Of a DNA stretch of 64,000 nt, positions 24,441 through 50,773 are shown piece by piece (position 1 is the stretch's first letter; every line of letters starts with the position of its first letter). Origin of the DNA: Lentisphaerota bacterium (GTDB lineage Bacteria > Verrucomicrobiota > Kiritimatiellia > UBA8416 > JAUUYL01); the NCBI GenBank assembly GCA_030590485.1, contig JAUUYL010000004.1:7878-71877 (forward strand), written 5' to 3'. The notes beneath the pieces were generated by a model. That model was given only the letters and a program-made list of their open reading frames with translations, had not been told where the DNA came from and searched no databases. The position numbers were made by a program, and so were the translations under genes.

Positions 24441-24451
24441 TCCTTTTTGAC

Positions 24452-25726: not shown

Positions 25727-25972
25727 AACATCTGAGAATATCGAATTCACCGTATTAGTCAATAACGCACTTAATACACAATAAGATAAATCGGGCATAC
25801 CCTGATATATGTATTCTAAAGACCCTAGTCGCCCCCAACCGTAATCAGCCCCACTCAGTCCCTTCCGCATCTGAATCATCAGTTCTTTATAACGAAGCCG
25901 GACTATTCACGTGCATCGTCCTCCGTCATGTCACGGCGTATCCGTCAGCTGATGGCGAGAACGGAGCATTCA

Positions 25973-28775: not shown

Positions 28776-29936
28776 CTAGTCGCCAATCTCTTCAGCGTCT
28801 GTATACGGCTCACTGCGACGACCTGCAGCAGCAAGCATCTTGCCTACAACGAATCCCGTCGCAATCGCGATAAGAATAGTAACAATAATACCTTTTGCCT
28901 GGGATACCTTCGATATATCTTCAACAAGGAACAGGGCTGCAACACCACCGAGCAGTCCCGGCAAGCCGTGAAGATGTAAAACACCGCATGTGTCGGCTTT
29001 TTTGAGCAGGCCTTCGAGCTTTGGCTGTATCACTGCGAAACTAAATGTGGATAGTGCGCCAGCGAGAATACCAATGGTGAACGCAGCCACTGGACCAACC
29101 TTGTCACAGGTGGAACCAATTGCCACACCACCAGCCAAAGCTGCATTGGCAATATCTGCAATAGAGAATTTCTTGCGGAGTGTTACGGATGCAAAGTAAG
29201 TTGCAAGAGTCGAACCGCAAAGTGCCAGGATCACATTAACCGCAGTGGCAGGAACATCTGCAGGTGCTACAAGCGCGCCACAGAAACTCGGCCAGAAAAC
29301 CCAAAGAACCATACTACCAAGCAAGGAGAACCGGTCGCTGGTCTCGTCTGATTCAATCTCAGTCTCAAACTCTTTCTTTGTGGTCATCGTCATGATCACA
29401 CCAAGCCCAAACAAAGCACCAAACGCATGAATTACGATAGAACCGCCTGTATCAACAAAGTTACCTTTTGTGATCAAACCAAGTCCACCGTCCAGAACCA
29501 ACCATTCATTAAACGCGTAACATGGAACAAAAAGAAGCCCCAGCAAGATATACTGTATCATCTTGAGCCGGCCCAAAGCCGCCCCGGCGCATATCAACAA
29601 ACTCGCCGCCGCAAATTCAGCAAGGATAACTCGATCAATCGCCGCCTCAGCACCACCCAGTATATGCAGTGAAGCTTTAAGGAAGTATAATGGCAGAGCC
29701 ACGCTCACGAGGAGGTATGTTGCAGTAACAGCAGAACGTCCGTACTTCTTTACGAACACCATCAGGAAGCCAAAACCCACGAGCAACATCGCCATGATGT
29801 GAATCGCCCTGTTGTATTTCTGGACGTCCGCCAGTGCGGAGATATCATCTTCCATCGCGGCGTAAGCCGGCGTGCAAAAACTCATTACAACTACAAATGC
29901 TATTCCCAACATCCACATAAACCGACTTACTCGCAT
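28776..29936 (-). CDS. Rh-type ammonium/gas channel (Amt/MEP/Rh superfamily)
   Basis: It has ~11 TM segments and the Rh-like motif GGSIVIHAFGALFGLGV. Length is 386 aa. Confidence 0.6.
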   Translation of the reverse strand: MRVSRFMWMLGIAFVVVMSFCTPAYAAMEDDISALADVQKYNRAIHIMAMLLVGFGFLMVFVKKYGRSAVTATYLLVSVALPLYFLKASLHILGGAEAAIDRVILAEFAAASLLICAGAALGRLKMIQYILLGLLFVPCYAFNEWLVLDGGLGLITKGNFVDTGGSIVIHAFGALFGLGVIMTMTTKKEFETEIESDETSDRFSLLGSMVLWVFWPSFCGALVAPADVPATAVNVILALCGSTLATYFASVTLRKKFSIADIANAALAGGVAIGSTCDKVGPVAAFTIGILAGALSTFSFAVIQPKLEGLLKKADTCGVLHLHGLPGLLGGVAALFLVEDISKVSQAKGIIVTILIAIATGFVVGKMLAAAGRRSEPYTDAEEIGD

Positions 29937-30948: not shown

Positions 30949-31290
30949 TCATCCTATGGAGTCATACCCTGTTTCACCCGTTCTGATTCTAACGCATTCC
31001 ACCAGATCCATGACAAATATTTTTCCGTCACCGATCTTTCCCGTCTTAGCCCCTTCGCAAATTGCGCCAATTGTCTTCTTGACGTACTCCTTGTTTACCG
31101 CGATTTCAAGCCTCACCTTCTTAAGCAGGTTCACCTCTATGTCTGTCCCGCGGTAACTCTCGTGATATCCCATCTGTTCTCCGCAACCTAATGCGTTTGT
31201 AACCGACATCTTATGTACATCATTCTCAAACAACGCCTTCTTTACTGCATTCAGTTTTTCCGGCTGTATATATGCTACTATCAATTTCAT
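30949..31290 (-). CDS. glnK: Nitrogen regulatory protein P-II
   Basis: [20 protein letters not shown]...T-loop [16 protein letters not shown]...[11 protein letters not shown]. The T-loop lacks the canonical Tyr51 (RGTDI). Confidence 0.85.
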
Positions 31291-31374
31291 CTCTTCTCCT
31301 CCCATTCTTGATCTTACTCTTAGTCCCCGAATCAAGTTCGGGATCACTGCTACGTAGCGACTTAATCCTCTACC

Positions 31375-32745
31375 TTACTGACTTGTAAAGATCTGAAATC
31401 CTGAATATGCTTCCATTCCATGTTCACCAATATCCAGCCCTTTAAGTTCTTCATCTTCACTGACCCTTATGCCAACTGTAGATTTGAGACCTTTGAAGAT
31501 AAGAAATGCCACAGGGAAACACACAACAGCATAACTGGCGATTCCGACAAGTTGAACGCCCAGAGATATTGTATAAGCATCTGCACCCTCTCCAACAACT
31601 GTTCCGTTTGCGAAGACACCAACAAACAATGTGCCTAAAATTCCACAGACAAGGTGCACAGTCGTCGCACCAACAGGATCATCTATCCTGATTCGGTCAA
31701 AAGTCATAACGGAAACCACTGCTATTGCACCGCAAATTAGACCTACGAGAACCGCGACTCTTACCGACAATATATCCGCACCTGCAGTGATTCCGACTAA
31801 GCCAGCAAGACAGCCATTCAGAACCATACTTAAGTCAGGCTTCTTCTGTATGGTCCAGGACGCGATCATTGCACCCATGATTCCGGCAGCCGCAGCAAGC
31901 GAGGTCGTGGTCAGCACGTACGGTACTGCAGTCGGATCAGCCGACAACACAGAGCCGCCATTAAAACCAAACCATCCCAACCAAAGCAGAAACGCTCCGA
32001 TGGTCAACAGAGGCATATTGTGCCCCATGATCGGCTTAACCGTGCCGTTGACATACTTTCCAAGCCTTGGACCCAGCAAGATAATACCGGCCAACGCCGC
32101 CCATCCGCCTACAGAGTGAACAAGAGTCGAGCCAGCAAAGTCATGAAAACCCATCTCGGCCAACCAACCGCCGCCCCACTTCCATGAACCCACAAATGGA
32201 TACACGAGCATTACGTATATAGCCGAGAAGATCAGAAATGGTCCCAATTTTATTCTTTCAGCAACCGCACCCGAAACGATTGTTGCCGAAGTGGCAGCAA
32301 ACATCCCCTGAAACAGGAAATCCGTCCAGTAACTGTAATTACCCCCTGCATAGGCAATTCCGCCCGCGGCACCTTCAGGGCAACTAAGTCCCATGCCTGC
32401 AAAACCAAGCACTTTGCCAAACAACCAACTGTCGCCCGGATACATCAAGTTGAAACCTATTAACGTATAAGTCAGCAACCCTATAGAGACAATTGCAGTA
32501 TTCTTAAAAAGAATATTCACCGTATTTTTCGCTCTGGTCAACCCTGACTCTACAGTGGCAAACCCGAGATGCATAATAAATACGAGAAAGATGGAAACCA
32601 TCATCCAAATATTATTAGCCGTATACAACGCAATATCTGCGGTCGAATACTCAACCGCCGCCTCTTCCGCCATCACTTCACCTGCCCCCGCAAGGAATGC
32701 CAAAGCAACCCCCGCCACTATCATGTACTTGAACCAAGTTTTCAT
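31375..32745 (-). CDS. amtB: Ammonium transporter
   Basis: Signal peptide MKTWFKYMIVAGVALAFLAGAGEVMA, Amt motif DFAGSTLVHSVGGWAALAG, and 11 TM segments. RBS aaggagtagg precedes ATG at 32745; the upstream 11 codons in the ORF track are rejected. Confidence 0.9.
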   Translation of the reverse strand: MKTWFKYMIVAGVALAFLAGAGEVMAEEAAVEYSTADIALYTANNIWMMVSIFLVFIMHLGFATVESGLTRAKNTVNILFKNTAIVSIGLLTYTLIGFNLMYPGDSWLFGKVLGFAGMGLSCPEGAAGGIAYAGGNYSYWTDFLFQGMFAATSATIVSGAVAERIKLGPFLIFSAIYVMLVYPFVGSWKWGGGWLAEMGFHDFAGSTLVHSVGGWAALAGIILLGPRLGKYVNGTVKPIMGHNMPLLTIGAFLLWLGWFGFNGGSVLSADPTAVPYVLTTTSLAAAAGIMGAMIASWTIQKKPDLSMVLNGCLAGLVGITAGADILSVRVAVLVGLICGAIAVVSVMTFDRIRIDDPVGATTVHLVCGILGTLFVGVFANGTVVGEGADAYTISLGVQLVGIASYAVVCFPVAFLIFKGLKSTVGIRVSEDEELKGLDIGEHGMEAYSGFQIFTSQ

Positions 32746-32792
32746 ACCTACTCCTTCCATTTGAGTGTTAAGGTTCATTGACAGGGGTTATC

Positions 32793-32808
32793 GCAACAAG
32801 CGTGCCAA
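32793..32808 (-). promoter_or_regulatory. Sigma-54 (-24/-12) promoter for amtB
   Basis: The minus strand reads TTGGCACGCTTGTTGC, which matches the TGGCAC-N5-TTGC consensus exactly. It sits ~45 bp upstream of the amtB start. Confidence 0.6.
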
Positions 32809-32957: not shown

Positions 32958-34520
32958 ATGAGCTCATCTCAAGATAAAGCCAAGAGTAATTCAAAGCGGT
33001 CGAAGCTGGAGCTGGATATCTTCTATAAGATATCGCAGGCGATGGCGCATCAGCATGAGATCCCCACTCTCCTTAATGAAGTGCTGGATATTATGGAGAC
33101 GGAGCTTGGCCTTTCACGGGGTACTCTAGCCTTAAGACAGCCGGACTCGGACATCTTTGAGATCAAGGCATCGCGAGGCCTCACATCTGCCGAAAGAAAG
33201 CGTGGTCAATACAATCTTGGTGAAGGAGTCACCGGCATAGTGGCGAAGACAGGCAAGCCCGCCACCATAGCTGACATCTCAAAGGATCCTAATTTTCTCG
33301 ATCGCACCAAATCAAGAAAGGATGCCCGCGTCGCGTTTCTTTGCGTACCCATCACCCATCTGCGCCAGGTTATAGGCACGATAAGCATTGATCGCCCAAT
33401 TACCAGTGATGACGAACTTAAGCGGGACATTAAATTTCTCAAACTCGTAGCTGACCTCCTTGCCGAATCGGTATCAAGCATCAGAGAGCAAATGGAGGAG
33501 AAGGAAAGCCTTACAGCGGAGAACCGCCTGCTCAGACAACAGCTTGGCGACAGATATCACCCGAGCAACATAATTGGTAACTGCGGTAGCATGCGCCAGG
33601 TTTACGAGCATATCGCGCAAGTCGCCGACAGCGCGGCAACGGTACTGATTCGAGGTGAGTCAGGAACAGGCAAAGAACTTGTGGCGCGCGCCATCCAGGC
33701 AATAAGCCCCCGAAAGAACAACGCATTCATCTGCGTCAACTGCGCTGCCCTTCCTGAAAACCTTATAGAAAGCGAACTTTTCGGCCACGAAAAAGGCGCG
33801 TTTACAGGCGCAATGAACCAGCGAAAAGGCCGATTCGAAATGGCCAACGGCGGGACACTGTTCCTTGACGAAATAGGCGACATCTCCCCAAGCGTTCAAG
33901 TGCGCCTTCTACGCGTTCTCCAGGAGCAGACTTTTGAGCGAGTCGGAAGCGACAAGACAACGACCGTTAACGTACGAGTGATTACGGCCACAAGTAGCAA
34001 TTTGGAAGAAGCCATCAGGGACGGCAAGTTCAGAGAGGATCTGTACTACAGGCTCAACGTGTTTCCTATCCACATCCCTTCGCTACGCGAAAGACGAGCC
34101 GACATAATGATGTTGGCCGATTACTTCATTCAGAAATATAACGAGCTTTACAATAAGAATATCAAGAGGATTTCGACTGCAGCAATCAATATGATGATGG
34201 CATATCACTGGCCGGGAAACGTCAGAGAGCTTGAGAACTGCATTGAGAGAGCTGTCCTTACATGTACGGATAATGTCATCCATGGCTACGCGCTACCACC
34301 TTCTCTACAGACAAGCGATGAGACAAATACTGAAGTCATGTCCGCAGAAGGTGCTAGTTTAAAAGCACTACTTGAATCATACGAGCGAGAGATAATTATC
34401 GATGCGTTGAAAAAGCATCGCGGTAATGCTACCGCCGTAGCAAAGGAACTGCATGCAACGCAGCGAGTGATCAATTACAGTATCAAGCTGCTTGCCATCA
34501 CCCCGCATAACTATAAATAG
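32958..34520 (+). CDS. Sigma-54-dependent transcriptional activator with N-terminal GAF domain (NifA-like architecture)
   Basis: GAF domain (residues ~20-180), AAA+ sigma-54 interaction module [15 protein letters not shown]...[16 protein letters not shown]-terminal Fis-type HTH. Confidence 0.85.
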
Positions 34521-34718: not shown

Positions 34719-35723
34719 CTACCGGAACTTACGAAGCACTTCTCGCGCGCTGATGAACGAGGCATAATCCTCGAGACCTGCCAGAGAATAAAATGACAGC
34801 CGAATTCCCAATTCCTTAGCTGCGGCCACAGCGTTCAAGCCGCCCGCGACAACCATGCCGCAATGCCCTTCCGAGACATTTATACCAAACAGCGGCTGAT
34901 TCGGCCGTCCGATAGCAAGAACTCCGCCAAGATTAAATTTTTTGATTCCTTTCACTATAGTCTTGATCTGATCAACCGCAGCAGTCGGGACCTCGCGAAA
35001 ACTGGCACATATTATTCCCGACCCCCGCAAAACAACATTTCTTACTCTGGTCATGTCGGCCCTGATAAAGATTTCAAGCGGGTCAAGCGTCGATCCACCA
35101 TACTCTATCATATTGACAAATCGAGTCATTCGTCGTTCCTTGATTTCCAGTAACCCTCCGAAGCGCGAAACAACAGGCACTCCCGCCTTCTGCAAAATAC
35201 CATTTAGCGTAAGACTACAAACAGTTCCAATGGCAGTAAACCCCTCAGGCACAATCATCCCTCCGAGCTCCTCGCCCGACTCCGCGACAGCCATCATATT
35301 CCCCATAACCAGATCCTGCGCAGCAACAAGCTGTATTTCCCTCACAATCCTTCCAACCTCAGCCGGATCGACCAAAGCTATATTGACAATTACGCTTCCC
35401 TCACCTTTCTCAGCATCCAGGGTCATTCGATATGCAAGCGTATCAACCTTTGCAGAGACTATTCCTACACGCGACACATGATCATCCGACGTCAACAGCT
35501 CCTGACGCCCCTTCTCCGTTATCTCTCTCCCCATTCTCCGACTGACAAGGCGCGTAAACCCACCGTCATCCAACTGCATAAGATAATGGCGAACCGTCCG
35601 AGGCTGAAGATCTACGCCCTCAGCCAAAAGCAAAGCCGCAATCTGCGATGCCCCAATCGGCCTCATCGTATCATTCAACGCCCTCAGAATCCCCATACGC
35701 GCACGATCAGCTCTCTCCGCCAT
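34719..35723 (-). CDS. Winged-helix regulator, possibly an NrpR-like (archaeal-type nitrogen repressor, DUF128) protein
   Basis: N-terminal wHTH (GILRALNDTMRPIGASQIAALLLAEG...RTVRHYLMQLDDGGFT...GREITEKG) plus a ~230-aa C-terminal domain. It sits between the nitrogen activator and gdhA. The family assignment is from memory. Confidence 0.35.
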   Translation of the reverse strand: MAERADRARMGILRALNDTMRPIGASQIAALLLAEGVDLQPRTVRHYLMQLDDGGFTRLVSRRMGREITEKGRQELLTSDDHVSRVGIVSAKVDTLAYRMTLDAEKGEGSVIVNIALVDPAEVGRIVREIQLVAAQDLVMGNMMAVAESGEELGGMIVPEGFTAIGTVCSLTLNGILQKAGVPVVSRFGGLLEIKERRMTRFVNMIEYGGSTLDPLEIFIRADMTRVRNVVLRGSGIICASFREVPTAAVDQIKTIVKGIKKFNLGGVLAIGRPNQPLFGINVSEGHCGMVVAGGLNAVAAAKELGIRLSFYSLAGLEDYASFISAREVLRKFR

Positions 35724-35894: not shown

Positions 35895-37292
<1,398 letters not shown>

Positions 37293-37316
37293 GGCTGTTT
37301 AAAAGCAATTAGAAAG

Positions 37317-37353
37317 CGGCCCTGTATCACTACGATCAGGGCCGTTTTTCTTT
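37317..37353 (+). terminator. Rho-independent terminator of gdhA
   Basis: cggccctg-tatcactacgat-cagggccg followed by tttttcttt. Confidence 0.6.
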
Positions 37354-37482
37354 ATAGACTTCAAATTTAACATTAATCTGTTCAAGACGCTTGCATAGCG
37401 GCAACAATTTTGACAGATTGACTCTGCTGTCAGCAAATTACTGACATCCACTACAAATATTCTTAACCTTAAGGAGAACAAA

Positions 37483-38895
37483 ATGGGCGGTTTCTTCGGC
37501 GTAACTTCAAAAGACGACTGTGTTAATGATTTATTTTTCGGCACAGACTACCAGTCACATCTGGGCACGCAACGTGGTGGGCTTGCTGTAATCGACGGCG
37601 ACGAATTCACTCGGTTCATTCACGACATCCGCAACGCACAATTTCGTTCAAAGTTTGATGATGACATCAAAAAAATGAACGGCCCATCAGGAATCGGCGT
37701 CATCAGCGATTTCGAAGATCAACCCATTATGGTCAATTCACATCTTGGCCAGTATGCCATCGTCACAGTGGGCGTCATACAAAACGCCGAAGAGCTTGTC
37801 GCAAAGGCTTTCAAGAGAAAACATACACATTTCGCGGAAATGGGCGGCGGCTACGTCAACCCGACAGAAATAGTTTCCACCCTTATAAACGAAGAAAACT
37901 CTTTCGAAGCAGGTCTTGAAAGCGCTCAGGAACAGATCGAGGGCTCATGCTCCATCCTCCTCTTATGCAAAGACGGCATATATGCCGCTCGCGACAGATT
38001 GGGACGTACCCCTATCGTTATTGGCCGAAAAGAGGATTCTTATTGCGCCGCTACGGAAAACTGCTCGTTCCCAAATCTTGATTACGAAATAGAGAAGGAT
38101 CTTGGGCCTGGCGAAATAGTCCTGATGACCTCGCAAGGAATCGAGCAAAAGAAAGCTCCAAACGAAAAAATGCAGATATGCTCCTTCCTTTGGGTTTACT
38201 ACGGATATCCATCATCATCCTATGAAGGCATAAACGTTGAAAACGTCAGATATAGATGTGGAGCCGCACTCGCCAAGAACGACGCTCACACGGTCGACAA
38301 GGTGGCCGGCATACCAGATTCGGGAACAGCACATGCTATCGGATATGCCAACGAAGCAAAAGTTCCATACATGAGACCTTTCGTTAAGTACACACCAACA
38401 TGGCCTCGTAGTTTCATGCCGCAAAATCAGGAAATAAGAAATCTAGTCGCACGCATGAAGCTTATCCCAATCAAGGAATTGATCAAGGGTCACAGCATTG
38501 CATTCTGCGAAGACTCGATTGTACGCGGTACTCAGCTACAGGATATCGTGCAGAGGGTATTCGATTACGGAGCGAAAGAATTTCATATGCGCCCCGCCTG
38601 CCCGCCCCTGGTCTACGGTTGCAAATACCTGAATTTCTCAAGATCTAGATCAATACTGGATCTAGCAACAAGAAAAGCCATGAAGGAAATCGAAGGGACA
38701 GAGTATCCTGACAATCATGCGGAATACGCTGATTTCAATTCAGACAAATATGCGGAGATGATAGAAAGTATCCGCAAGCGCCTGAAACTGTCTTCTCTGC
38801 AATTCCAAAAACTTCCTGACCTTGTTGAGGCTATTGGCCTGCCAAAAGAAAAGCTCTGTACATACTGCTGGGACGGATGCGATGGCTGTAATTAG
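37483..38895 (+). CDS. Amidophosphoribosyltransferase (PurF) paralog lacking the N-terminal catalytic cysteine
   Basis: The Ntn class-II amidotransferase fold aligns with PurF (LFFGTDYQSHLGTQRGGLAVIDG) but begins MGGFFGV instead of MCG. PRPP-binding motif CEDSIVRGTQ. Strong RBS aaggagaacaaaATG. Confidence 0.65.
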   Translation: MGGFFGVTSKDDCVNDLFFGTDYQSHLGTQRGGLAVIDGDEFTRFIHDIRNAQFRSKFDDDIKKMNGPSGIGVISDFEDQPIMVNSHLGQYAIVTVGVIQNAEELVAKAFKRKHTHFAEMGGGYVNPTEIVSTLINEENSFEAGLESAQEQIEGSCSILLLCKDGIYAARDRLGRTPIVIGRKEDSYCAATENCSFPNLDYEIEKDLGPGEIVLMTSQGIEQKKAPNEKMQICSFLWVYYGYPSSSYEGINVENVRYRCGAALAKNDAHTVDKVAGIPDSGTAHAIGYANEAKVPYMRPFVKYTPTWPRSFMPQNQEIRNLVARMKLIPIKELIKGHSIAFCEDSIVRGTQLQDIVQRVFDYGAKEFHMRPACPPLVYGCKYLNFSRSRSILDLATRKAMKEIEGTEYPDNHAEYADFNSDKYAEMIESIRKRLKLSSLQFQKLPDLVEAIGLPKEKLCTYCWDGCDGCN

Positions 38896-38898
38896 ACG

Positions 38899-39753
38899 AT
38901 GAATAGAATTATAGAGACAACTCAGCTTTCGGACGATGTTTTTAAACTCATAGTTGACGCTCCCCTCATCGCGGAGGAGCGCAAACCTGGTCAGTTCATC
39001 ATCCTTCAAATCCATGACGATGGTGAGCGTATTCCGCTTACAATCGCGGATGGCAACAGCAAAAAAGGTACCATCACCCTGATATTCCAGGCTGTTGGCA
39101 GATCCACTCATATGCTCGCAAACTTTAAAGTGGGAGATGAGATTGCTCATCTACTCGGACCGCTCGGGACGCCCACACATATTGAGAAATTCGGACATGT
39201 AGTCTGCGTCGGCGGCGGGATTGGTGTCGCGCCAATGCATCCCATCGCTCAAGGAATGAAAGTGGCAGGAAACAAGGTGACAATCATCATGGGTGCCAGG
39301 AACAAGGAACTGATGGTTCTCGAGGACGAAATGCGTACCATAGCAGATGACCTGATTATCTGCACGGACGACGGCTCGCACGGCCGCAAATGTCTGGTCA
39401 CGGAACCGCTGAAGGAACTCTGCGAAAACGATCCGAAGCCCGATCTGGCTGTTGCCATAGGACCACCTATCATGATGAAGTTCTGCGCCGAGACGACCAG
39501 ACCTTACGAGGTCCACACGCTCGTATCACTAAACACTATAATGATAGACGGAACAGGAATGTGCGGCGGATGCAGAGTCTCTGTTGGCGGAAAAACTAAG
39601 TTCGTATGCGTAGACGGTCCGGAATTCGACGGACACAAAGTGGATTTTGATAACATGATGCTTCGACTCGGTGCTTACAAAAAGCGCGAAGCGGACGATC
39701 ATCACAAATGCCACATAGAGCTTGGAATAGATTGGACTGCGGACAAAGGATAG
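38899..39753 (+). CDS. nfnA: PyrK/NfnA-like FAD/NAD(P)-binding ferredoxin reductase subunit with C-terminal [2Fe-2S]
   Basis: FNR-like fold and C-terminal cluster motif GTGMCGGCRV...C. It is translationally coupled to the downstream GltD-like gene. Confidence 0.65.
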   Translation: MNRIIETTQLSDDVFKLIVDAPLIAEERKPGQFIILQIHDDGERIPLTIADGNSKKGTITLIFQAVGRSTHMLANFKVGDEIAHLLGPLGTPTHIEKFGHVVCVGGGIGVAPMHPIAQGMKVAGNKVTIIMGARNKELMVLEDEMRTIADDLIICTDDGSHGRKCLVTEPLKELCENDPKPDLAVAIGPPIMMKFCAETTRPYEVHTLVSLNTIMIDGTGMCGGCRVSVGGKTKFVCVDGPEFDGHKVDFDNMMLRLGAYKKREADDHHKCHIELGIDWTADKG

Positions 39754-41229
39754 ATGGATTATCACTTAATGAACGACGAAGCAAAGAAACAACTTGCCAA
39801 TATTGATTCACGCGAAGAACCGCTGAAGCCCAAAGACCGCATTGCGATTCCAACGCAGGAAATGCCAACGCAAGACCCGATTGAGCGAGGTAAAGATTTC
39901 ACCGAGGTTGCCACTGGCTACACTGCAGAACAGGCACAACTGGAGTCTATCCGATGCCTGCAATGTAAAACGGCACCATGTATAGCTGGCTGCCCGGTCG
40001 GAATCAACATCCCCGGCTTTCTCAAGGCTGCATCCGAAGGCAATTTCGAAAAATCTGTCCAAATCATAAAAGAAAGCAGTCTCCTTCCCGCAATATGCGG
40101 CAGAGTCTGTCCGCAGGAAACCCAGTGCCAGGAGCCATGCACAGTAGGTAAAGCACTTAAAGACGTCGAGCAGGCTGTCTCCATAGGACGCGTTGAACGA
40201 TATGTAGCTGACCTCGAACGTGACAATGGTATCGTAACCCCTGCCGTGAAATCGAAAACAGGCAAAAAAGTAGCTGTAATAGGAAGCGGTCCAGCGGGAC
40301 TCGTGGTGGCAGCAGACGTCCGACGAGAAGGTCATGACGTAACAATCCTGGAAGCATTCCACAAACCCGGTGGTGTCATGGTTTATGGCATTCCTGAATT
40401 CAGATTACCCAAGGCTATTGTTCAGACAGAAATCGACACCCTCATAGCTATGGGCGTGGAACTTAAAACCGATTTCGTAGTCGGACGCACCCGCAAACTC
40501 AAGGACCTGATCGAAAAAGACGGTTACGATGCTGTCTTCGTCGCAACAGGTGCAGGGTTGCCAAGATTCATGAATATCGAAGGCGAGAATCTTGTCGGAG
40601 TCTTTTCCGCAAATGAATATCTGACACGCGCAAATCTTATGAAAGCATACGACCGTGAAAACGCAGATACACCCATCATACAATCACGGAAGGTTGCTGT
40701 CCTGGGAGGCGGAAATGTTGCCATGGATTCTGCTCGCACCGCATTACGTCTTGGCGCAGAAGAAGTTCATATCGTTTACAGGCGCACGGAAAAAGAAATG
40801 CCCGCGCGAGTCGAAGAAGTTCACCACGCACAAGAGGAAGGCATCGTTTTCCATCTTCTAGAGAACGCAAAAAGCATACTTGGGGACGATCAGGGCCTCG
40901 TGACCGGCATGGAATGTCTGCGTTACGAGCTGGGCGCGCCGGACGAGTCCGGGCGACGCCGCCCCGTTGTTATCGAAGGAAGCGAATTTATTATGGATGT
41001 TGATACAGTAATTGTCGCTATCGGCAACGACTCGAATCCGCTCATCAAGCAGACCACCCCAGAAATCGAATGCAATAAATGGGGGAACATCATTGTCGAC
41101 GACACCGGAAAGACATCCATGGATTGCGTCTACGCAGGTGGCGACATCGTTCTGGGGGCGGCAACTGTAATCCTCGCTATGGGCGAAGGACGCAGAGCCG
41201 CAGCATCGATCAACGCATTGCTTGCGTAA
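39754..41229 (+). CDS. nfnB: GltD-like NADPH-dependent oxidoreductase (NfnB / glutamate synthase small-subunit family)
   Basis: N-terminal 2x[4Fe-4S] CLQCKTAPCIAGCP...CPQETQCQEPC, FAD/NADPH Rossmann motifs VAVIGSGPAGL and VAVLGGGNVAMD. Confidence 0.75.
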   Translation: MDYHLMNDEAKKQLANIDSREEPLKPKDRIAIPTQEMPTQDPIERGKDFTEVATGYTAEQAQLESIRCLQCKTAPCIAGCPVGINIPGFLKAASEGNFEKSVQIIKESSLLPAICGRVCPQETQCQEPCTVGKALKDVEQAVSIGRVERYVADLERDNGIVTPAVKSKTGKKVAVIGSGPAGLVVAADVRREGHDVTILEAFHKPGGVMVYGIPEFRLPKAIVQTEIDTLIAMGVELKTDFVVGRTRKLKDLIEKDGYDAVFVATGAGLPRFMNIEGENLVGVFSANEYLTRANLMKAYDRENADTPIIQSRKVAVLGGGNVAMDSARTALRLGAEEVHIVYRRTEKEMPARVEEVHHAQEEGIVFHLLENAKSILGDDQGLVTGMECLRYELGAPDESGRRRPVVIEGSEFIMDVDTVIVAIGNDSNPLIKQTTPEIECNKWGNIIVDDTGKTSMDCVYAGGDIVLGAATVILAMGEGRRAAASINALLA

Positions 41230-42002: not shown

Positions 42003-44120
42003 CTACATCATAAACATCATTTCTGAATACGACGGCAATGGCCGGAGTTCGTCAGAAAGCATGCCTTCAATATTATCAGCGGCTTCGCGCAGCACTAACA
42101 TAGCCTTAAGCTTGTCGGAAGGCTTGCCCTTCTTGATTACAGCTTCAAGCTTGCTTGTGGCTTTCAACAGCTTTTCTGTTTCGGCTACAACCGCAGTGAA
42201 CAGCTTTTTACTCTCAGGTATATTCTTTACACCAACAGCCTTTACCGCGCCTAGGATGTCAGCAAGCTCACCCTGGTACTCTAACACAGCTGGAGCTATC
42301 ATTGTCTTTGCGATTCTGACAGCACATTGAGCTTCGATAGCAATAGTCTCCTCGTAAATCTCGCTGTAAATCTCATAGCGCGCTTCAAGCTCTCTCTTGC
42401 TCAGCACGTTGAATTTCTCAAAAAGCGTTATGGTTTTTTTAGATATTATCTGCTTCAAGGCTTCATCTGTTGTTTTCAGGTTAGGTAGCCCCCTACGTTC
42501 CGCTTCTTTATGCCAGTCTTGCGAATAATTATCGCCCTCAAACAACACTCTTTTGTGCTTCTTAACGATACCTTGCAGAACCTTCTGCAACGCATCGTTA
42601 AACTTTACCTTCTTCGACAACATCCCCTCTACCGCCGTGCAAATATCATCCAGTGCCTCGGTAACAATTGTGTTCAGCACTACGTTTGCGCCAGCGCAAC
42701 TCTGACTGGAGCCCACTGCCCGGAACTCAAACTTGTTTCCTGTAAAAGCAAATGGTGATGTTCTGTTGCGGTCAGTAGCATCGCGAGGCAGGGAAGGAAG
42801 AGATGACACACCGATTTCGATTGTTCCTCCATTCTTAGAGCTTTTAGCCCCACCCTTTTCTACCTGCCGTATCACGTCATGCAGCTGTTCCCCAAGAAAT
42901 ATCGACATAATCGCTGGAGGCGCCTCATTAGCGCCTAGCCTGTGATCATTGCCTGCGGTCGCTACAGACGCACGAAGCAATCCAGCATGAGTATCAACAG
43001 CCTTAATGACCGCACATATTACTGTAAGGAATCGTGCGTTATCATGAGGATTATCTCCAGGCTTGAGCCAATTCTTACCATCCGGGCCATTCACATTCCA
43101 GTTGTTGTGTTTACCGGATCCATTTACGCCCGCGAATGGTTTTTCATGAAGCAGGCAGGCAAAGTTATGTCTCTCGGCTACATCTTCAATAACCTCCATC
43201 ATTAGCATGTTGTGATCTACGGCCAGGTTAAGCTCCTCATATACGGGCGCCAACTCAAATTGCCCCGGACAGACTTCGTTATGCCTGGTCTTCGCCGGCA
43301 CGCCAAGACGCCACATCTCCCTATCGAGCTCACACATGAACGCTACTACCCTGCTCTTTATCACCCCGAAATAATGATCATCCATCTGTTGGTGCTTAGC
43401 AGGAATCTTTCCGAACAAAGTCCGCCCAGTCTGAAGCAGATCGGGCCGCATCTCATACAATTCTCTATCAATGAGGAAATACTCCTGTTCAGCGCCAAGC
43501 GAGGCCGTTGTCTTCCGCCCATTGACTTTGACACCAAACAATTTTGCTAACCGGCAGAACTGCTCTGACAGAGCATCGCCTGAACGCAACAATGGCGTCT
43601 TTTTATCCAAAGCTTCTCCATTGTATCCGCAGAACACAGTTGGTATGCACAGTGTTGCGCCATTTTCACCTTCACGAATGAATGCCGGACTGGTTGGATC
43701 CCACGCTGTATACCCGCGCGCCTCAAAAGTTGCGCGCAAACCGCCTGATGGGAAACTCGACGCATCCGGCTCACCCTGGATCAATTCCTTCCCCGAAAAC
43801 TTATAGACTGCGCCATCATTCCCATCCGGAGTCACAAAGGAGTCATGCTTTTCAGCTGTAGAGCCTGTCAACGGCTGAAACCAGTGTGTGAAATGCGTAG
43901 CGCCCTTCTCCAACGCCCAAGTCTTCATAGCCTCTGCCACGTCATCAGCAATCTCCGGATTTAGGGTTTTCCCTTTGCGGACTGTTGACACTAAAGACTT
44001 GTAAACCGTTGCCGACAGATACTTCCGCATCGTCTTTATGCTGAAAACATTCTCGCCAAAGAATTTAACAATATCATCAGTCTTTTTCTTTTTAGTATTT
44101 CCTGAAGTCTTTCGAGGCAT
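42003..44120 (-). CDS. glnN: Glutamine synthetase type III
   Basis: 705 aa with GS catalytic-domain motifs and the characteristic GSIII N- and C-terminal extensions. Confidence 0.85.
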
Positions 44121-44333: not shown

Positions 44334-47300
44334 TTGGTTGAGAATAGTAAAAATGGTTCGGTACTCATTTTGGGTGCAGGTATCGCTGGAATACAGGCGG
44401 CGCTGGATCTTGCCGACTCCGGCTATAAGGTATACCTGGTCGAATCCAAAACCGCTATCGGCGGTCATATGGCACAGCTTGATAAGACATTCCCCACTAA
44501 CGACTGCGCAATGTGCACAATCTCACCTCGTCTCGTAACCGCTGGCCTGCATAGAAACATTGAGATTATCACAAACGCCGAACTGCAAGAACTCAAGGGT
44601 GAAGCTGGTAATTTCGAAGCAACAATACGTCTCAACCCTAATTTTGTAGATCTCGACAAATGTACAGGCTGCGGTCTCTGTGCAGAGGAATGTCCTATTA
44701 ATATCCCTGACGAATACAACCAGGGACTGAACAACAGAAAAGCCATTTACAAATTATACCCGCAAGCCGTACCAAACAAATTCACTATCAGCAAACTGGG
44801 CGAAGCACCATGCTACGACGCGTGCCCTCTTCACGGAGACCCCAGCGGCTATGTCGCACTGACCGCTGAAGGCCGCTATCAGGAAGCTCTGGATCTTGTC
44901 AGAGAAAAGAACCCCTTCCCCGCTATCTGCGGCAGAATATGTCAACATCCATGCGAAACAGAATGCAGCCGATGCAAAGTCGATGAGCCCGTTTCCATCG
45001 CATACATAAAACGATTTCTGGCTGACTGGGAAATGGGTCATGGCGAAGAGAAAACACCCGCCGCTGAAATAATTGAAAATGGAAAGAAAGTCGCCATCAT
45101 CGGGTCAGGTCCCGCAGGACTTACCGCCGCACGCGAGCTTAGGAAAATGGGCTATTCTCCCGCAATTTACGAGTCTCGCGCAAAAGCCGGCGGCATGATG
45201 ACTCTCGGCATCCCCTCGTACCGCCTACCGCACGAGATTATAGAAAAGGAAATAAAAGACATTACCGATCTGGGTGTAACCCTTAAAATCAATTCACCGA
45301 TTAATTCCGAAGAAGACATCGAAGCTCTCTTTAAGGATGGATGCGAAGCCGTCTTCCTCAGTGTAGGCTCCCACCAAAGCAGAAGCATGGATATTGAGGG
45401 CGAAGACCTTGAAAACGTTACGGACGGTGTTACCTTTCTGCGCGAACTAAGCCTTGGATCAATAACTTCAGTCAAAGAACGAGTTATTGTTGTAGGAGGA
45501 GGCAACGTAGCACTCGACTGCGCGCGCTCCGCCCTGCGTCTTGGTGCCAAGGCTGTAAATATCGTTTGCCTGGAAGCTTACGAGAACATGCCTGCGCACC
45601 GCAACGAGATTGACTGGGCGGAAGAAGAAGGCATCGTCGTCAACGCCGCAAAGGCGACACAAAGCATTACAGATAAAAACAACGCCTTTGCCGGGTTGGC
45701 ATTGATGGATGTAAAGAAAATGGCGTTCGTAGAAGGAAAACTCGAGCTAGAGACTGAGCCGGGTTCAGAATCAACAATTGAAGCCGACCAGATGATTGTA
45801 GCCATCGGCCAGGCACCTGACCTCTACTTCCTCTCCGATGACAGCAAAATCAACACCACCCCACGGGGTACTCTGGATGTGGACAGCAAAAGCTTTATGA
45901 CATCCTGGAAAGGCGTATTCTCAGGAGGCGATGTAGTGCGTGGAGCGGCAAGCGTTATCGAGGCCGTTGCAGACGGCAGAAATGCAGCCATGTCGATAGA
46001 CGCCTATATCAAGGGCGAAGAATTTACTCCAGACGCAAGCAATCAGCCGATTGTAACGCTATCAGACGAAGAAATTAGAGCAAAACTGAAAAGTAAGGAA
46101 ATACAAAAGACGCCTCGTCACATCATGCCAGAACGCCCAGTCGAAGAACGTATTTCAAACTTTAGCGAAGTAGATCTCGGGTTGAGCGAGGAAGCCGCAA
46201 AGAAGGAAGCCGAACGCTGTCTCTATTGCTCTATCTGCTCCAACTGCCGAAGATGCGAAACAGTATGCGAAGCTAACGCGCTCATCTATGATGACGTTCC
46301 TAAGAACAGAACAATCAATCCGGGCGCAGTTATCCTCGCCCCTGGTTTCGAACTGTTTGATTCGGGCAAAAAAGGAGAATTTGGCTACAAACGATTTCCA
46401 AATGTCATTTCCGCTCTGGATTATGAACGCATACTCAGTGCGTCCGGCCCTACACTTGGTCATATACAGAGAATCTCCGACAGCAAGACGCCTCGGAACA
46501 TAGCCTTCATTCAGTGTGTGGGATCAAGAGACGAAGACAACCCATATTGTTCATCCGTTTGCTGCACCTTTGCAATAAAACAATCCATCATTACAAGAGA
46601 GCATGCGAAGGACACACAATGCACCATTTTCGCGATGGACATCCGTGCCTTTGGTAAGGGCTTTGATGAGTATTTCGAGCGTGCAAAAAACAACTACGGC
46701 GTCAAAGTTGTATACACACGCCCATCGTCGATTAAACAGGATTTCAAAACCCACAATCTTCAGCTGCAATTCACCGAAGATGGTCAAGACTGGATCGAAC
46801 AGGAATTCGATCTGGTCGTTCTCTCAGCTGGCTTATGCCAGAATGACAAGGCCAAAGAAATCGCAAATGTCTGTGAAATCGACCTGAACGACTACTCGTT
46901 CGCCAATTCACCCGTCTTTTCGCCAACATCGACCAACCGCGAAGGTGTATATCTCGCCGGAACATTTGAGGAGCCGAAAGACATTCCGGAATCAGTGACC
47001 CACGCAAGTGCAGCCGCAGCGAGGGCAATGGAACTGCTTGCCGATGTCAGAGGCACTGAAGTAGAAGAAAAAGTTTATCCAAAAGAAAGAGACGTATCAC
47101 AGGAAGAACAACGCATAGGCGTCTTTGTATGTCACTGTGGATCAAACATCGAGGGATTCATCAGTTGCAAAGAAGTAGCCGAGTACGCTCAAAGCCTCAA
47201 AAACGTAGTATACACAGACCATCTTCTCTACAGTTGCTCTCCAGACGGACTGCAAACCATTAAAGATATGGTGATAGAGCATAACCTCAACCGTGTGGTT

Positions 47301-48794
47301 GTAGCATCCTGCACACCGCGCACACACGAGCCACTATTTCAAGAAAACATCAGAGAAGCAGGACTAAACCCCTACCTCTTCGAGATGGCCAACATACGCG
47401 ACCAATGCACATGGGTACATGCAGATATGGGCGAAGCGACCCAAGAAAAGGCCAATGACCTAGTGCGAATGGCCGTCGGCAGAGCACGAACGATTGAATC
47501 GCTATCTTCAAAGACGTATGTACCAAAGCGCAGCGCGCTGGTCGTCGGAGGAGGAATCTCAGGCATGAGCTCCGCACTCTCCGTAGCCAACCAGGGCCAC
47601 GAAGTATACCTGGTCGAAAAATCGGACAAACTTGGCGGCAGTGCATTGAAGATCAAGAAAACCATAGACGGCAGCAACCCAGCCGAACTAGTACAAAGTC
47701 TCGAGGAAAGCGTGCTTGAACATGACAAGATCACGGTAATGATGAACGCTGAAGTCGCAGAAACCAGCGGTTTCATCGGCGATTTCCACACTCAGATCAA
47801 AAGCAAAGCAAAAGACGTATCCTTTGAACATGGCGCAACAATTATTGCGACAGGCGCGGAGGAGCTCAAGCCTTCCGAATATCTTTTCGGAGAGAACGAG
47901 CATATTGTAACTCAACAGACTTTCGAAGAAACGATCGAAAACAGCCCCGAAACCATTAAGAGCATTAAAGAAATTGTGATGATCCAATGTGTCGGCTCTA
48001 GAGAGCCTGATAGAATGGTCTGCAGCAGAGTGTGCTGTACCGAGGCCATAAAAAACGCCATTGCTGTAAAAAATGCTAATCCTGAAGCATCTGTTTCCAT
48101 TCTTTATCGAGACATACGCACATATGGGTTCCTTGAGAAATACTACACCGAAGCACGCGAGATGGGCATCTTGTTTTTTAGGTACGATCTGGAAAACAAG
48201 CCTGAGGTGACTTCCGGCAATGACGGTAAACTCAGAGTACGGACAAAGGATCTCAATTCCGGCCTCGAAATAAGTTTCGACCCTGACTGCCTGGTTTTAA
48301 GCGCAGGAATGGTGACCCCTGAGGGGACGCAAAAGGTAGGAACAGCCTTCAAAATCCCATTAAACCTCGAAGGCTTTTTCCAAGAGGCCCACATGAAACT
48401 GCGTCCTGTAGACTTTGCCTCTGACGGCATATTCCTTTGCGGCACCTGCCACAGCCCTAAGTTCATCAGAGAAAGCATTATACAGGCGCAAGGTGCGGCA
48501 GCTAGAGCGATTGGCATACTTTCAAAACCAGAAATGGAAATAAGCTGCATCATTTCAAAGGTTGACGAGGACAAGTGCGTTGCCTGCCTTACCTGCGTAA
48601 GGACATGTCCATACGATGTCCCAAAGATAAATAAGGATGGTATTGCCGAGATTGAACCTGCGATGTGCCATGGATGCGGTATCTGCGCTGCCGAATGCCC
48701 GGCAAAAGCCATAAGCATGATGCATTACAAGGATAGACAGATTATTTCCAAGACCCAGGCCCTGTACAACGAGAAAGGCGAGCTGCAAAAATAA
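44334..48794 (+). CDS. hdrL: Giant HdrA-like flavoprotein with an inserted GltD-like NAD(P)H-binding module and a second HdrA-like module (HdrL-type), 1486 aa
   Basis: HdrA N-terminus VLILGAGIAGIQAALDLADSGYKVYLVE...CTGCGLCAEECP. A GltD-like insert follows (PFPAICGRICQHPCETEC; VAIIGSGPAGLTAARE; VIVVGGGNVALDCARSA). HdrA continues (FIQCVGSRDEDNPYCSSVCC). A second module follows (ALVVGGGISGMSSAL...IQCVGSREPDRMVCSRVCC) and a C-terminal 2x[4Fe-4S] CVACLTCVRTCP...CHGCGICAAECP. It starts at TTG. Confidence 0.75.
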   Translation: MVENSKNGSVLILGAGIAGIQAALDLADSGYKVYLVESKTAIGGHMAQLDKTFPTNDCAMCTISPRLVTAGLHRNIEIITNAELQELKGEAGNFEATIRLNPNFVDLDKCTGCGLCAEECPINIPDEYNQGLNNRKAIYKLYPQAVPNKFTISKLGEAPCYDACPLHGDPSGYVALTAEGRYQEALDLVREKNPFPAICGRICQHPCETECSRCKVDEPVSIAYIKRFLADWEMGHGEEKTPAAEIIENGKKVAIIGSGPAGLTAARELRKMGYSPAIYESRAKAGGMMTLGIPSYRLPHEIIEKEIKDITDLGVTLKINSPINSEEDIEALFKDGCEAVFLSVGSHQSRSMDIEGEDLENVTDGVTFLRELSLGSITSVKERVIVVGGGNVALDCARSALRLGAKAVNIVCLEAYENMPAHRNEIDWAEEEGIVVNAAKATQSITDKNNAFAGLALMDVKKMAFVEGKLELETEPGSESTIEADQMIVAIGQAPDLYFLSDDSKINTTPRGTLDVDSKSFMTSWKGVFSGGDVVRGAASVIEAVADGRNAAMSIDAYIKGEEFTPDASNQPIVTLSDEEIRAKLKSKEIQKTPRHIMPERPVEERISNFSEVDLGLSEEAAKKEAERCLYCSICSNCRRCETVCEANALIYDDVPKNRTINPGAVILAPGFELFDSGKKGEFGYKRFPNVISALDYERILSASGPTLGHIQRISDSKTPRNIAFIQCVGSRDEDNPYCSSVCCTFAIKQSIITREHAKDTQCTIFAMDIRAFGKGFDEYFERAKNNYGVKVVYTRPSSIKQDFKTHNLQLQFTEDGQDWIEQEFDLVVLSAGLCQNDKAKEIANVCEIDLNDYSFANSPVFSPTSTNREGVYLAGTFEEPKDIPESVTHASAAAARAMELLADVRGTEVEEKVYPKERDVSQEEQRIGVFVCHCGSNIEGFISCKEVAEYAQSLKNVVYTDHLLYSCSPDGLQTIKDMVIEHNLNRVVVASCTPRTHEPLFQENIREAGLNPYLFEMANIRDQCTWVHADMGEATQEKANDLVRMAVGRARTIESLSSKTYVPKRSALVVGGGISGMSSALSVANQGHEVYLVEKSDKLGGSALKIKKTIDGSNPAELVQSLEESVLEHDKITVMMNAEVAETSGFIGDFHTQIKSKAKDVSFEHGATIIATGAEELKPSEYLFGENEHIVTQQTFEETIENSPETIKSIKEIVMIQCVGSREPDRMVCSRVCCTEAIKNAIAVKNANPEASVSILYRDIRTYGFLEKYYTEAREMGILFFRYDLENKPEVTSGNDGKLRVRTKDLNSGLEISFDPDCLVLSAGMVTPEGTQKVGTAFKIPLNLEGFFQEAHMKLRPVDFASDGIFLCGTCHSPKFIRESIIQAQGAAARAIGILSKPEMEISCIISKVDEDKCVACLTCVRTCPYDVPKINKDGIAEIEPAMCHGCGICAAECPAKAISMMHYKDRQIISKTQALYNEKGELQK

Positions 48795-49240
48795 TGAATA
48801 ACTTTGAACCGAAAATAACTGCGTTTTGCTGCACCTTCTGCGCGTTCAGTGCGGCGGACCTTGCGGGATCAATGCGATTGCAGTACCCACCGAACGTAAG
48901 GATTGTAAAACTGCCATGCACAGGCAAAGTAGATGTCCTTTACATCCTCAAGGCCTTTGAAGACGGCGCAGATGGTGTGTTTGTTGCAGGTTGCCTCGAG
49001 GGCGAGTGTCATTACCTTGAGGGTAATTTCCGAGCAAGAAAACGGGTCGAATATGCGAAAATGCTTCTTGAGGAAGTTGGGATCGAAGGTGAGCGCGTCG
49101 AAATGTACAACCTATCCTCGGCTATGGGTGCCCGGTTCGCTGAAATCGTTGAGGAGATGACGGCAAAAATCAAGGAACTTGGACCGAGAGGAAATGGCTA
49201 TAGGTCAGAGGAAGAATGTGAAGAGGGAAAACGTGACTGA
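48794..49240 (+). CDS. mvhD: MvhD-like [2Fe-2S] electron-transfer protein
   Basis: KITAFCCTFCAFSAADLAG...VKLPCTGKVD...FVAGCLEGECHY is the MvhD signature. Confidence 0.8.
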   Translation: MNNFEPKITAFCCTFCAFSAADLAGSMRLQYPPNVRIVKLPCTGKVDVLYILKAFEDGADGVFVAGCLEGECHYLEGNFRARKRVEYAKMLLEEVGIEGERVEMYNLSSAMGARFAEIVEEMTAKIKELGPRGNGYRSEEECEEGKRD

Positions 49241-49288
49241 TGGGCTTAGGGGGAAGAGACTTGAAGCATAGATACTTGTGGATTTAAG

Positions 49289-49843
49289 ATGAGAATTGAA
49301 GAGAACAACGTAAATATAGACAGTTCCTTCGCGCTGGAAGTGCAGAAGCGAAGCGGAGAGAATGTCTTTTTGTGTTACCAATGCAGAAAATGTGCTTCTG
49401 GTTGTCCGCTAAGAGAAATGATGGACAGCAGTCCCACCGAATTTATGCGCTTTGTTCAGCTTGGCATGAAAGATAAGGCAATGACAGACAGTACAGTTTG
49501 GCGTTGCACATCCTGCCAGACCTGCACTACGCGCTGTCCGCAAGGTATCGACATAGCACATGTCATCGACACAGTTAAGATGATGGCACAGGACGAGAGA
49601 ATCAAGGTAGACAGCAAGAATGTAAAAGCTTTTAACGTCATATGGATGAATATGCTCAAACATATGGGCAGGATTTACGAACTCGGACTTGTCGCCCTTC
49701 TTAACATGGCCATGAAACAACCGCTCAAGGGCGCTGAACTGGCCGTCGAAATGGTTAAGAAAGGTAAGCTGAAGTTCATACCAACGATTAAACGTTCTGC
49801 ATCGATGCGAAGAATGTTTAAAAGAGCTAAGGGGTTAAAATAA
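49289..49843 (+). CDS. hdrC: Heterodisulfide reductase subunit C-like (2x[4Fe-4S])
   Basis: CYQCRKCASGCP and CTSCQTCTTRCP. Confidence 0.8.
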   Translation: MRIEENNVNIDSSFALEVQKRSGENVFLCYQCRKCASGCPLREMMDSSPTEFMRFVQLGMKDKAMTDSTVWRCTSCQTCTTRCPQGIDIAHVIDTVKMMAQDERIKVDSKNVKAFNVIWMNMLKHMGRIYELGLVALLNMAMKQPLKGAELAVEMVKKGKLKFIPTIKRSASMRRMFKRAKGLK

Positions 49844-50703: not shown

Positions 50704-50773
50704 CGGAGAATAAACACAATGAAGAAATATTATACGCTTCACGTTTCACGTTTCACGGGGCAAAGGGGATCTC

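Follow-up and report, generated by a model that had tools for sequence, protein, structure and literature searches.

What reaction can be expected of a homologue of amidophosphoribosyltransferase (PurF) that has lost the N-terminal cysteine nucleophile and is encoded among genes for ammonium assimilation? The question is raised by an open reading frame (ORF) at 37483..38895 (+) of a 64,000 nt stretch of contig JAUUYL010000004.1 from a Lentisphaerota bacterium, hereafter the window, within which all positions are counted. PurF carries out the committed, regulated step of purine synthesis, and its dependence on glutamine is textbook biochemistry. The 470 aa product of the ORF begins MGGFFGV, lacks the glutaminase residues and carries the phosphoribosyltransferase (PRTase) motifs; we use the name PurFL for it and for the cysteine-less PurF-like clade to which it belongs. 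As judged from its sequence, PurFL is without the N-terminal nucleophile and without every residue that binds or activates glutamine, while the PurF fold, the PRTase elements and the [4Fe-4S] ligands are kept. We tentatively read it as a phosphoribosyltransferase that does without glutamine and most probably makes phosphoribosylamine from NH3 alongside canonical PurF, a reading to which we give somewhat less than an even chance.

Start codon and homology to PurF

The ATG at 37483 is preceded, at a spacing of 6 nt, by the Shine-Dalgarno sequence AAGGAG (37471-37476, +; read from the sequence), which is kept in L081, the locus of a 91%-identical relative, and agrees with the strong ribosome-binding site described in an earlier note on this DNA. 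The upstream in-frame region of the window contains stop codons, and between the last of these and the ATG there is no ATG, GTG or TTG codon and no Cys codon. An upstream start or propeptide that would bring a cysteine to PurFL, for which the earlier note had left room, is thus excluded. That the ORF is an annotation artefact, through a wrong start, a sequencing error or decay of a purF pseudogene, would be suggested by the unusual N-terminus only, and we consider the chance of this negligible given the upstream stops, the strong ribosome-binding site, an N-terminus shared by more than 100 homologues and the thousands of intact, conserved relatives described below.

Residues 3-389 of PurFL align to the purF equivalog model TIGR01134 (E 2.8e-56, hmmscan) with a score of 191.7 bits, below the curated cutoff of 350, and residues 3-384 align to Bacillus subtilis PurF 1ao0 (E 8e-43, phmmer). 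The nearest relatives of solved structure are the Fe-S-type PurFs of B. subtilis (1ao0/1gph, E about 1e-42), followed by plant, other and Escherichia coli PurFs. Pfam reports GATase_7 alone (residues 77-192). An AlphaFold model based on an alignment of 22 family members (predicted local distance difference test score 79.5) superposes in both domains on PurF structures with template modelling scores of 0.76-0.79 (Foldseek). These matches bear out the two-domain, PurF-like organisation along the whole length that had been claimed, and they place PurFL among PurF homologues, below the equivalog cutoff.

Three regions can be delimited. An N-terminal nucleophile (Ntn)-type amidotransferase-like domain comprises residues 1-230 (37483..38172, +), as indicated by Pfam GATase_7 and by alignments to canonical PurF. 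The type I PRTase domain (residues 231-385; 38173..38637, +) contains GIPDSG, the flexible loop KYTPTWPRSFMPQ, the phosphoribosyl pyrophosphate (PRPP) loop FCEDSIVRGTQ and the Fe-S ligands C233 and C380. The C-terminal helical region (residues 386-470; 38638..38892, +) ends CTYCWDGCDGCN, and its C459 and C462 correspond to the third and fourth [4Fe-4S] ligands in PurF of the Fe-S type. PADLOC returned no match between the window protein and any defence-system model.

Loss of the glutamine site and retention of the PRTase site

Residue by residue, PurFL was set against five canonical enzymes, namely B. subtilis PurF and four from related loci, using E. coli numbering for Arg73/Tyr74. Canonical Cys1 is Gly, the HRGQE motif has become HLGTQR with Arg26 replaced by Leu, the H-x-R-Y-A-T loop that carries Arg73/Tyr74 is absent through a 7-residue deletion, the oxyanion pair Asn101-Gly102 is Val-Gly, and Asp127 is Pro. 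We take Arg26, Arg73/Tyr74, Asn101-Gly102 and Asp127 to serve glutamine binding and the oxyanion, with Asp127 binding the glutamine amino group. With the glutamine lid loop deleted, PurFL also carries a 7-residue insertion (NAQFRSKF).

The alignment also shows that PRTase residues are retained alongside the replacement of Cys1. The GIPDSG loop is kept, the PRPP loop reads FCEDSIVRGTQ for canonical DDSIVRGTT, and the flexible loop KYTPTWPRSFMPQ, which corresponds to canonical KNRYVGRTFIxPxQ, has K302, R309, S310 and F311 in place. The [4Fe-4S] ligands of B. subtilis PurF (C236, C382, C437 and C440) correspond to C233, C380, C459 and C462, which are invariant in all alignments and probably bind a cluster in PurFL as well. 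Because the whole glutamine site is gone, and not Cys1 alone, PurFL is predicted to be unable to act as a glutaminase, which strengthens the earlier statement that it cannot hydrolyse glutamine.

A large and widespread clade

A protein search of a 5.8-billion-protein collection gave at least 8000 matches, the best 120 of which were analysed. These are 69-91% identical to PurFL over the full length, and all named copies among them are called "amidophosphoribosyltransferase". Position 2 is Gly in 98 of the 120, Ser in 21, truncated in one and Cys in none, so the Gly reported for the window protein is confirmed as a shared feature of its closest homologues. When 50%-identity representatives were scanned exhaustively with HMMER, 775 were found at E below 1e-30, and full-length members down to about 34% identity have G, S, T or A at position 2 (D once) and none of the RYAT, NG and D127 motifs. 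Gly, Ser, Thr and Ala are residues that permit removal of the initiator Met, and their occurrence here agrees with an N-terminus that is buried in the Ntn fold and has no nucleophile.

Among GTDB genomes, with one genome per species, we confirmed at least 597 PurFL relatives and fetched 80 loci with about 8 kb of flank each. The PurFL proteins of these loci are 56-77% identical to that of the window, the closest among the GTDB matches listed being from Kiritimatiellae (77%). Hosts span more than 15 bacterial phyla and the Asgard archaea. They include groups of the Planctomycetes-Verrucomicrobia-Chlamydiae (PVC) type (Kiritimatiellae, Lentisphaerae/Victivallales, Planctomycetota and Verrucomicrobiota), Gemmatimonadota, Acidobacteriota/Aminicenantes, Desulfobacterales and other Thermodesulfobacteriota, Anaerolineae, Spirochaetes/Treponema, Bacteroidales, and, in the Firmicutes, many Lachnospiraceae, Ruminococcus and other Clostridia. 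The archaeal hosts are Promethearchaeota, Hermod- and Heimdallarchaeota. Oligosphaera ethanolica DSM 24202 and Ruminococcus sp. zg-924 are cultured hosts; the Victivallis vadensis locus comes from a metagenome-assembled genome (MAG).

On these comparisons, PurFL is a large, ancient and strongly conserved clade derived from PurF, and the earlier framing as a single C1G substitution, which would imply a local mutation, was misleading. The clade lies outside the PurF equivalog family as defined, with Cys1, the glutamine site and the required score lacking and the fold, PRPP site and Fe-S ligands present. A full-text literature search found no description of it; subscription literature lay outside that search, so an earlier description is possible.

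Three 50%-cluster representatives (P0214, P0251, which is locus L088, and P0261) form a sister group about equidistant from PurFL and canonical PurF. They keep the propeptide, Cys1 and HRGQ and have lost the Arg73/Tyr74 (RYAT) loop and Asn101, and may represent either an intermediate stage of evolution or a third type of function. A group with the cysteine and without RYAT and Asn101 suggests that the clade left canonical chemistry before the cysteine was lost.

Domain fusions offered no functional hint that could be generalised, being singletons (one with TPR repeats, one with TIR) that may be genuine or may have arisen as chimeras during assembly. P0123 has the TPR repeats at its C-terminus. 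The metagenomic protein P0219 (665 aa) is a distant PurFL-type sequence, 35% identical and with Ala in place of the Cys, to which a TIR domain is fused at the C-terminus; the latter matches Thoeris/TIR defence models, and the PADLOC match of this protein is through the TIR domain only.

Where conservation lies

Within the close family (22 sequences) identity is 67% in the N-domain, 81% in the PRTase domain and 71% in the C-terminal region, and in a set of 43 diverged representatives the corresponding values are 35%, 42% and 34%. The diverged set has 35 positions conserved at ≥90%, nearly all of them in the PRTase domain or at the four Fe-S cysteines. K302, R309, S310, R319, K326, D344, S345, V347, R348, T350, Q351 and the loop glycines are among them, and the elements FCEDSIVRGTQ, GIPDSG and K302...R309-S310-F311 reach the same level of conservation across the broad clade. 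Those N-domain residues that survive look structural (Y23, G33, F58, P81, N101, several Gly and E211), and no conserved polar set was found in the N-domain of the 43 representatives. Conservation centred on the PRTase part indicates that the shared, selected function resides in the PRTase site, and the pattern speaks against the former glutaminase domain having gained a new catalytic centre.

The same data bear on the possibility that PurFL is a regulatory pseudoenzyme, which would bind PRPP and/or purine nucleotides through the PRTase site it has kept, and perhaps a nitrogen metabolite in the remodelled N-domain, without turnover, and would modulate CarB, canonical PurF or glutamine synthetase. 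An identity of 56-77% maintained across phyla, and basic and polar N-domain residues that are invariant in the close family, as for a binding surface, are compatible with such a role. Across the broad clade, however, the conserved residues are catalytic-type PRTase elements including the flexible loop, motifs that are usually relaxed in pseudoenzymes, and the N-domain is not conserved to that degree. We regard this explanation as rather unlikely, and return to it with the gene neighbourhoods.

Genomic context in relatives

The 80 loci have no universal PurFL partner gene, although two associations recur. carB lies within two genes of PurFL in nine loci from at least three phyla, five of them co-directional with a gap of ≤44 bp. 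A Cys-bearing canonical purF adjoins PurFL in five loci, of which three are Asgard and the other two belong to Planctomycetaceae and Anaerolineae, which upholds the earlier view of PurFL as a paralogue and not the canonical enzyme. By our own estimate a given single-copy gene should occur in such a flank about 0.3 times per 80 loci; the associations with carB and purF are therefore real, though not phylogenetically independent. The Anaerolineae MAG locus (L016, 4901-9398) has an apparent operon purC-purE-purF(Cys-bearing)-PurFL in which the tandem PurF-type genes are 24 bp apart, the clearest case of canonical purF and PurFL in one transcription unit. Other neighbours are purB in a Lachnospiraceae genome, guaA (two loci), glnA (three), gdh (one) and type III glutamine synthetase (GS-III; one). 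Together with nrpR and pyrG, the last four of these genes are found close to PurFL in several phyla. For the diverged representatives P0131, P0251 and P0153 the contigs are so short that they say nothing on gene context. The recurring neighbours are enzymes that make or spend glutamine and ammonia for nucleotides, and link PurFL to purine and nitrogen metabolism.

For a regulatory pseudoenzyme it can be said that PurFL stands repeatedly beside carB and purF yet in no fixed pathway operon, and that the complete canonical PurF in the operon of L016 makes a second catalyst not obviously necessary. The lack of a partner conserved in most loci is a further point against it.

Gene order in the close relatives varies: pyrG, GS-III, nrpR, gdh, PurFL in L089; carB, DUF1846, a GuaA C-terminal-type protein, PurFL, GS-III in L090; carB, DUF1846, PurFL and an HdrA-like cluster in L082; and a stand-alone PurFL in L083. 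The carB and DUF1846 (PF08903) genes, which precede PurFL in two close relatives from the PVC group (L082, 1-3289; L090, 2-1940), are divergent from it. The GuaA-like protein of L090 (322 aa) represents the GMP-synthase C-terminal/ATP-PPase part, with no amidotransferase domain reported.

The nitrogen island and the linkage to nfnAB

In the window, the earlier description of a nitrogen island holds. Upstream of PurFL are two amt genes (28776-29936 and 31375-32778, both -), a PII gene (30949-31347, -), a GAF/sigma-54 activator gene (32958-34520, +), an NrpR-type nitrogen repressor gene (34719-35723, -), which is also found beside gdh-PurFL in L089, and, directly upstream, the glutamate dehydrogenase gene gdh (35898-37292, +), the order gdh-PurFL being kept in L081 and L089. 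Downstream is the gene for GS-III (42003..44120, -), also present at the PurFL loci of L081, L089 and L090. No canonical purF was found within the window, which does contain purD and purE (23931-25879, -). Between 28776 and 32778 (-) the two amt genes flank a Gcw_chp-family (outer-membrane-type) gene as well as the PII gene. The PII ORF (131 aa) exceeds the Pfam model by about 18 residues at its N-terminus, and its start may thus have been placed too far upstream.

PurFL is directly followed by genes for an NfnA/PyrK-like subunit with FAD/NAD(P) and [2Fe-2S] domains (38899..39753, +; NF004862, 405.6 bits against a cutoff of 220; Pfam DHODB_Fe-S_bind) and an NfnB/GltD-like subunit (39754..41229, +; TIGR01316, 610.4 bits against a cutoff of 471.75; Pfam Fer4_20 and Pyr_redox_2). 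Lying side by side, the PyrK-like and GltD-like genes have the architecture of NfnAB (NADH-dependent reduced-ferredoxin:NADP+ oxidoreductase), in which a small FAD/[2Fe-2S] protein is paired with one that carries FAD and two [4Fe-4S] clusters, and are predicted to encode this enzyme. The tight spacing noted earlier is real, with corrected values: the gap after PurFL is 3 nt (TAG acg ATG) and not 4, and the two nfn-like ORFs abut with a gap of 0 nt. An intrinsic-terminator-like hairpin and U-run after gdh (37312..37352, +; -24.2 kcal/mol, z -7.1), the stem of which is kept in L081 with a different loop, makes PurFL-nfnA-nfnB look like a transcription unit of its own.

The NfnAB linkage that the earlier note had stressed is present in the window and in L081 (order gdh-PurFL-nfnA-nfnB-GSIII) and does not extend further: the window NfnA and NfnB gave no tblastn match in any of the 80 genome loci, and nfnAB is not beside PurFL in L082, L083, L089 and L090. 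A conserved PurFL-NfnAB module is accordingly rejected. One could nevertheless imagine PurFL joined to the NfnA-like and NfnB/GltD-like proteins in a redox complex, such as a new enzyme of the glutamate-synthase-like or reductive aminating type. GltD-type subunits are commonly electron-input modules, the three ORFs follow one another at 3 nt and 0 nt in an order kept in L081, and PurFL has a predicted [4Fe-4S] site. Against such a complex stand the absence of nfnAB from the loci just listed, the lack of an FMN/synthase domain and of glutaminase in PurFL, and the scores of the Nfn-like proteins, which exceed the curated cutoffs of ordinary NfnA/NfnB-type families; nfnAB together with NADP-type gdh is also simply explained as NADPH supply. 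We hold this explanation to be very improbable. Its special case, a glutamate synthase formed from PurFL and the GltD-like gene, is rejected, with Cys1 missing and no FMN/GltS domain in PurFL or its neighbours.

An exact palindrome, TGACAG-N10-CTGTCA (37411-37432, +), unique in the window and with its left half altered in L081, is followed by a third TGACA half-site. The whole element (37411-37446) lies 40-70 bp upstream of the PurFL start and is a possible operator. An Rfam gathering-threshold scan of the DNA preceding PurFL, in the window and in 10 Firmicutes loci, found no riboswitch or leader RNA, the archaeal NrpR operator GGAA-N6-TTCC had 0 matches, and sigma-54 consensus matches in the window were not above chance, with none upstream of PurFL. 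The best sigma-54-like element, TGGCACGCTTGTTGCG (32792-32807, -; one mismatch), is just upstream of the amt gene at 31375-32778 and near the divergent activator gene.

Functional interpretation

We posit that PurFL binds PRPP and would transfer the ribosyl-phosphate to a nucleophile not derived from glutamine, the likeliest reaction being PRPP + free NH3 -> phosphoribosylamine + pyrophosphate. The former glutaminase domain would then be only a structural lid over the PRTase site, and PurFL an ammonia-using isoenzyme alongside canonical PurF. A precedent exists in E. coli PurF, where the C1A and C1S variants lose glutamine activity and still use NH3, according to the passage of PMC3261824 that quotes Mei and Zalkin 1989. 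In the window organism, PurFL would be transcribed with nfnAB from its own promoter after the gdh terminator, nfnAB beside NADP-type gdh could supply NADPH for ammonium assimilation, and placement in an NrpR/sigma-54-type ammonium-assimilation island would tie entry into purine synthesis to ammonium and glutamate status. Of the two alternatives raised in the earlier note, both plausible, we rank NH3 use ahead of a sensor role.

Several observations weigh against NH3-dependent phosphoribosylamine synthesis. The PRTase side is not identical to that of PurF, with YFSRPDS changed to YYGYPSS, KNRYVGR to KYTPTWPR and RGTT to RGTQ, and the substrate or regulation of PurFL may therefore differ. The N-domain of the close family contains many invariant polar residues at its 67% identity, a constraint that exceeds the obvious need of a passive lid and would be in keeping with the binding of a ligand or of another protein. 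Gene neighbourhoods vary, an informative partner being absent from most loci, and an enzyme dependent on free NH3 is oddly placed among genes of the nitrogen-limitation type (amt, GS-III, NrpR).

The differences on the PRTase side could also mean that PurFL is an active PRTase for another nucleophile (an amine, an amino acid or a heterocycle) bound by the altered N-domain, with an unknown ribosyl-5-phosphate compound as the product. The changes near the PRTase site are clade-specific and near-universal (Q351 for Thr, KYTPTWPR and YYGYPSS), they are accompanied by the NAQFRSKF insertion and the deletion of the glutamine lid loop, and the Cys1-bearing sister group is already without the RYAT loop and Asn101. 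Set against this, no biosynthetic partner genes recur that could consume a special product, and the neighbours that do recur are ordinary purine, pyrimidine and nitrogen genes. We judge another nucleophile to be unlikely.

Apart from the choice of reaction, we consider it close to an even chance that PurFL is a functionally unrecognised family, present in thousands of genomes under the label 'amidophosphoribosyltransferase', with a role other than the reaction of textbook PurF. The options within this wider proposal are an NH3-dependent entry into purine synthesis in anaerobes, a PRPP/nucleotide sensor that coordinates CarB, PurF and glutamine synthetase, and a PRTase that makes a new ribosyl-phosphate metabolite.

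Other features of the window

The ORF at 44334-48794 (1486 aa) was considered as a glutamate synthase large subunit (GltB) and rejected; it is an HdrA/GltD-like flavoprotein fusion heading an Hdr-like/MetVF cluster. This cluster (44334-52353, +) comprises the HdrA/GltD-like multi-flavin/Fe-S fusion followed by genes for HdrC-like (Fer4), HdrB-like (CCG), MetV (DUF5981) and MetF (MTHFR) proteins, and looks like an Hdr-coupled methylene-tetrahydrofolate reductase cluster. In L082 the same Hdr-like cluster, with an extra FlpD gene, directly follows PurFL.

A single ORF at 21157-22860 (-) combines ribose-5-phosphate isomerase B (LacAB_rpiB, residues 2-140) with serine hydroxymethyltransferase (residues 153-529). 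It is located downstream of purD, purE and the genes for a Sua5/YrdC-family protein and a low-molecular-weight phosphatase (22879-25879, -).

Significance

A widespread clade that cannot use glutamine means that automatic annotation and metabolic models miscount purF, which affects many anaerobes, gut Firmicutes, PVC bacteria, sulfate reducers and Asgard archaea. If PurFL is an NH3-dependent phosphoribosylamine synthase, it would provide a glutamine-sparing entry to purine and thiamine synthesis and join AsnA and NH3-type NadE as ammonia-using counterparts of amidotransferases. Should it instead be a sensor or form another product, it would add a regulatory or metabolic node of a new kind that connects PRPP and carbamoyl phosphate with ammonium assimilation. 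The NfnAB linkage is a lineage-local detail, and the broader finding is a cross-domain, PurF-derived family without the glutaminase site that is annotated as PurF throughout.

Comparison with known systems

The closest known system is Fe-S-type PurF (EC 2.4.2.14; B. subtilis 1ao0/1gph), which has in common with PurFL the two-domain fold, the four cluster cysteines, the motifs (E/D)DSIVRGT and GxPDSG, and the flexible-loop pattern K...R(S/T)F. Unlike it, PurFL has no Cys1 and no propeptide, its glutamine-site residues are changed, RGTQ replaces RGTT, and its score is below the TIGR01134 cutoff. It also differs from a sole canonical PurF in occurring beside canonical purF in the same genomes, as seen at five loci.

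Loss of the nucleophile has a parallel in two AsnB homologues from which the N-terminal Cys has disappeared, beta-lactam synthetase and carbapenam synthetase; both appear as distant fold matches of the PurFL model. Like PurFL, they are natural class II (Ntn) homologues in which glutaminase chemistry is lost, the N-domain is structural and the synthetase domain is kept or repurposed. They differ in having an ATP-pyrophosphatase C-terminal domain and a known function, and are rare enzymes of secondary metabolism.

A second purF-like gene with Ser for Cys, Mlab_0150 of Methanocorpusculum labreanum, was noted in 2011 and, in the part of PMC3261824 that treats it, left unexplained. That passage describes it as a recent duplicate nearest to the organism's own purF, and by this description it would stand apart from the PurFL clade.

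The C1A and C1S variants of E. coli PurF, as presented in the same part of PMC3261824, are the mechanistic model for the possible action of PurFL, in that the nucleophile is lost and NH3-dependent phosphoribosylamine synthesis is left. These are point mutants made in the laboratory, in which the rest of the glutamine site is intact, whereas PurFL is a natural and ancient clade in which the whole site has been remodelled. By analogy, PurFL would work most like a PurF limited to the NH3-dependent half-reaction.

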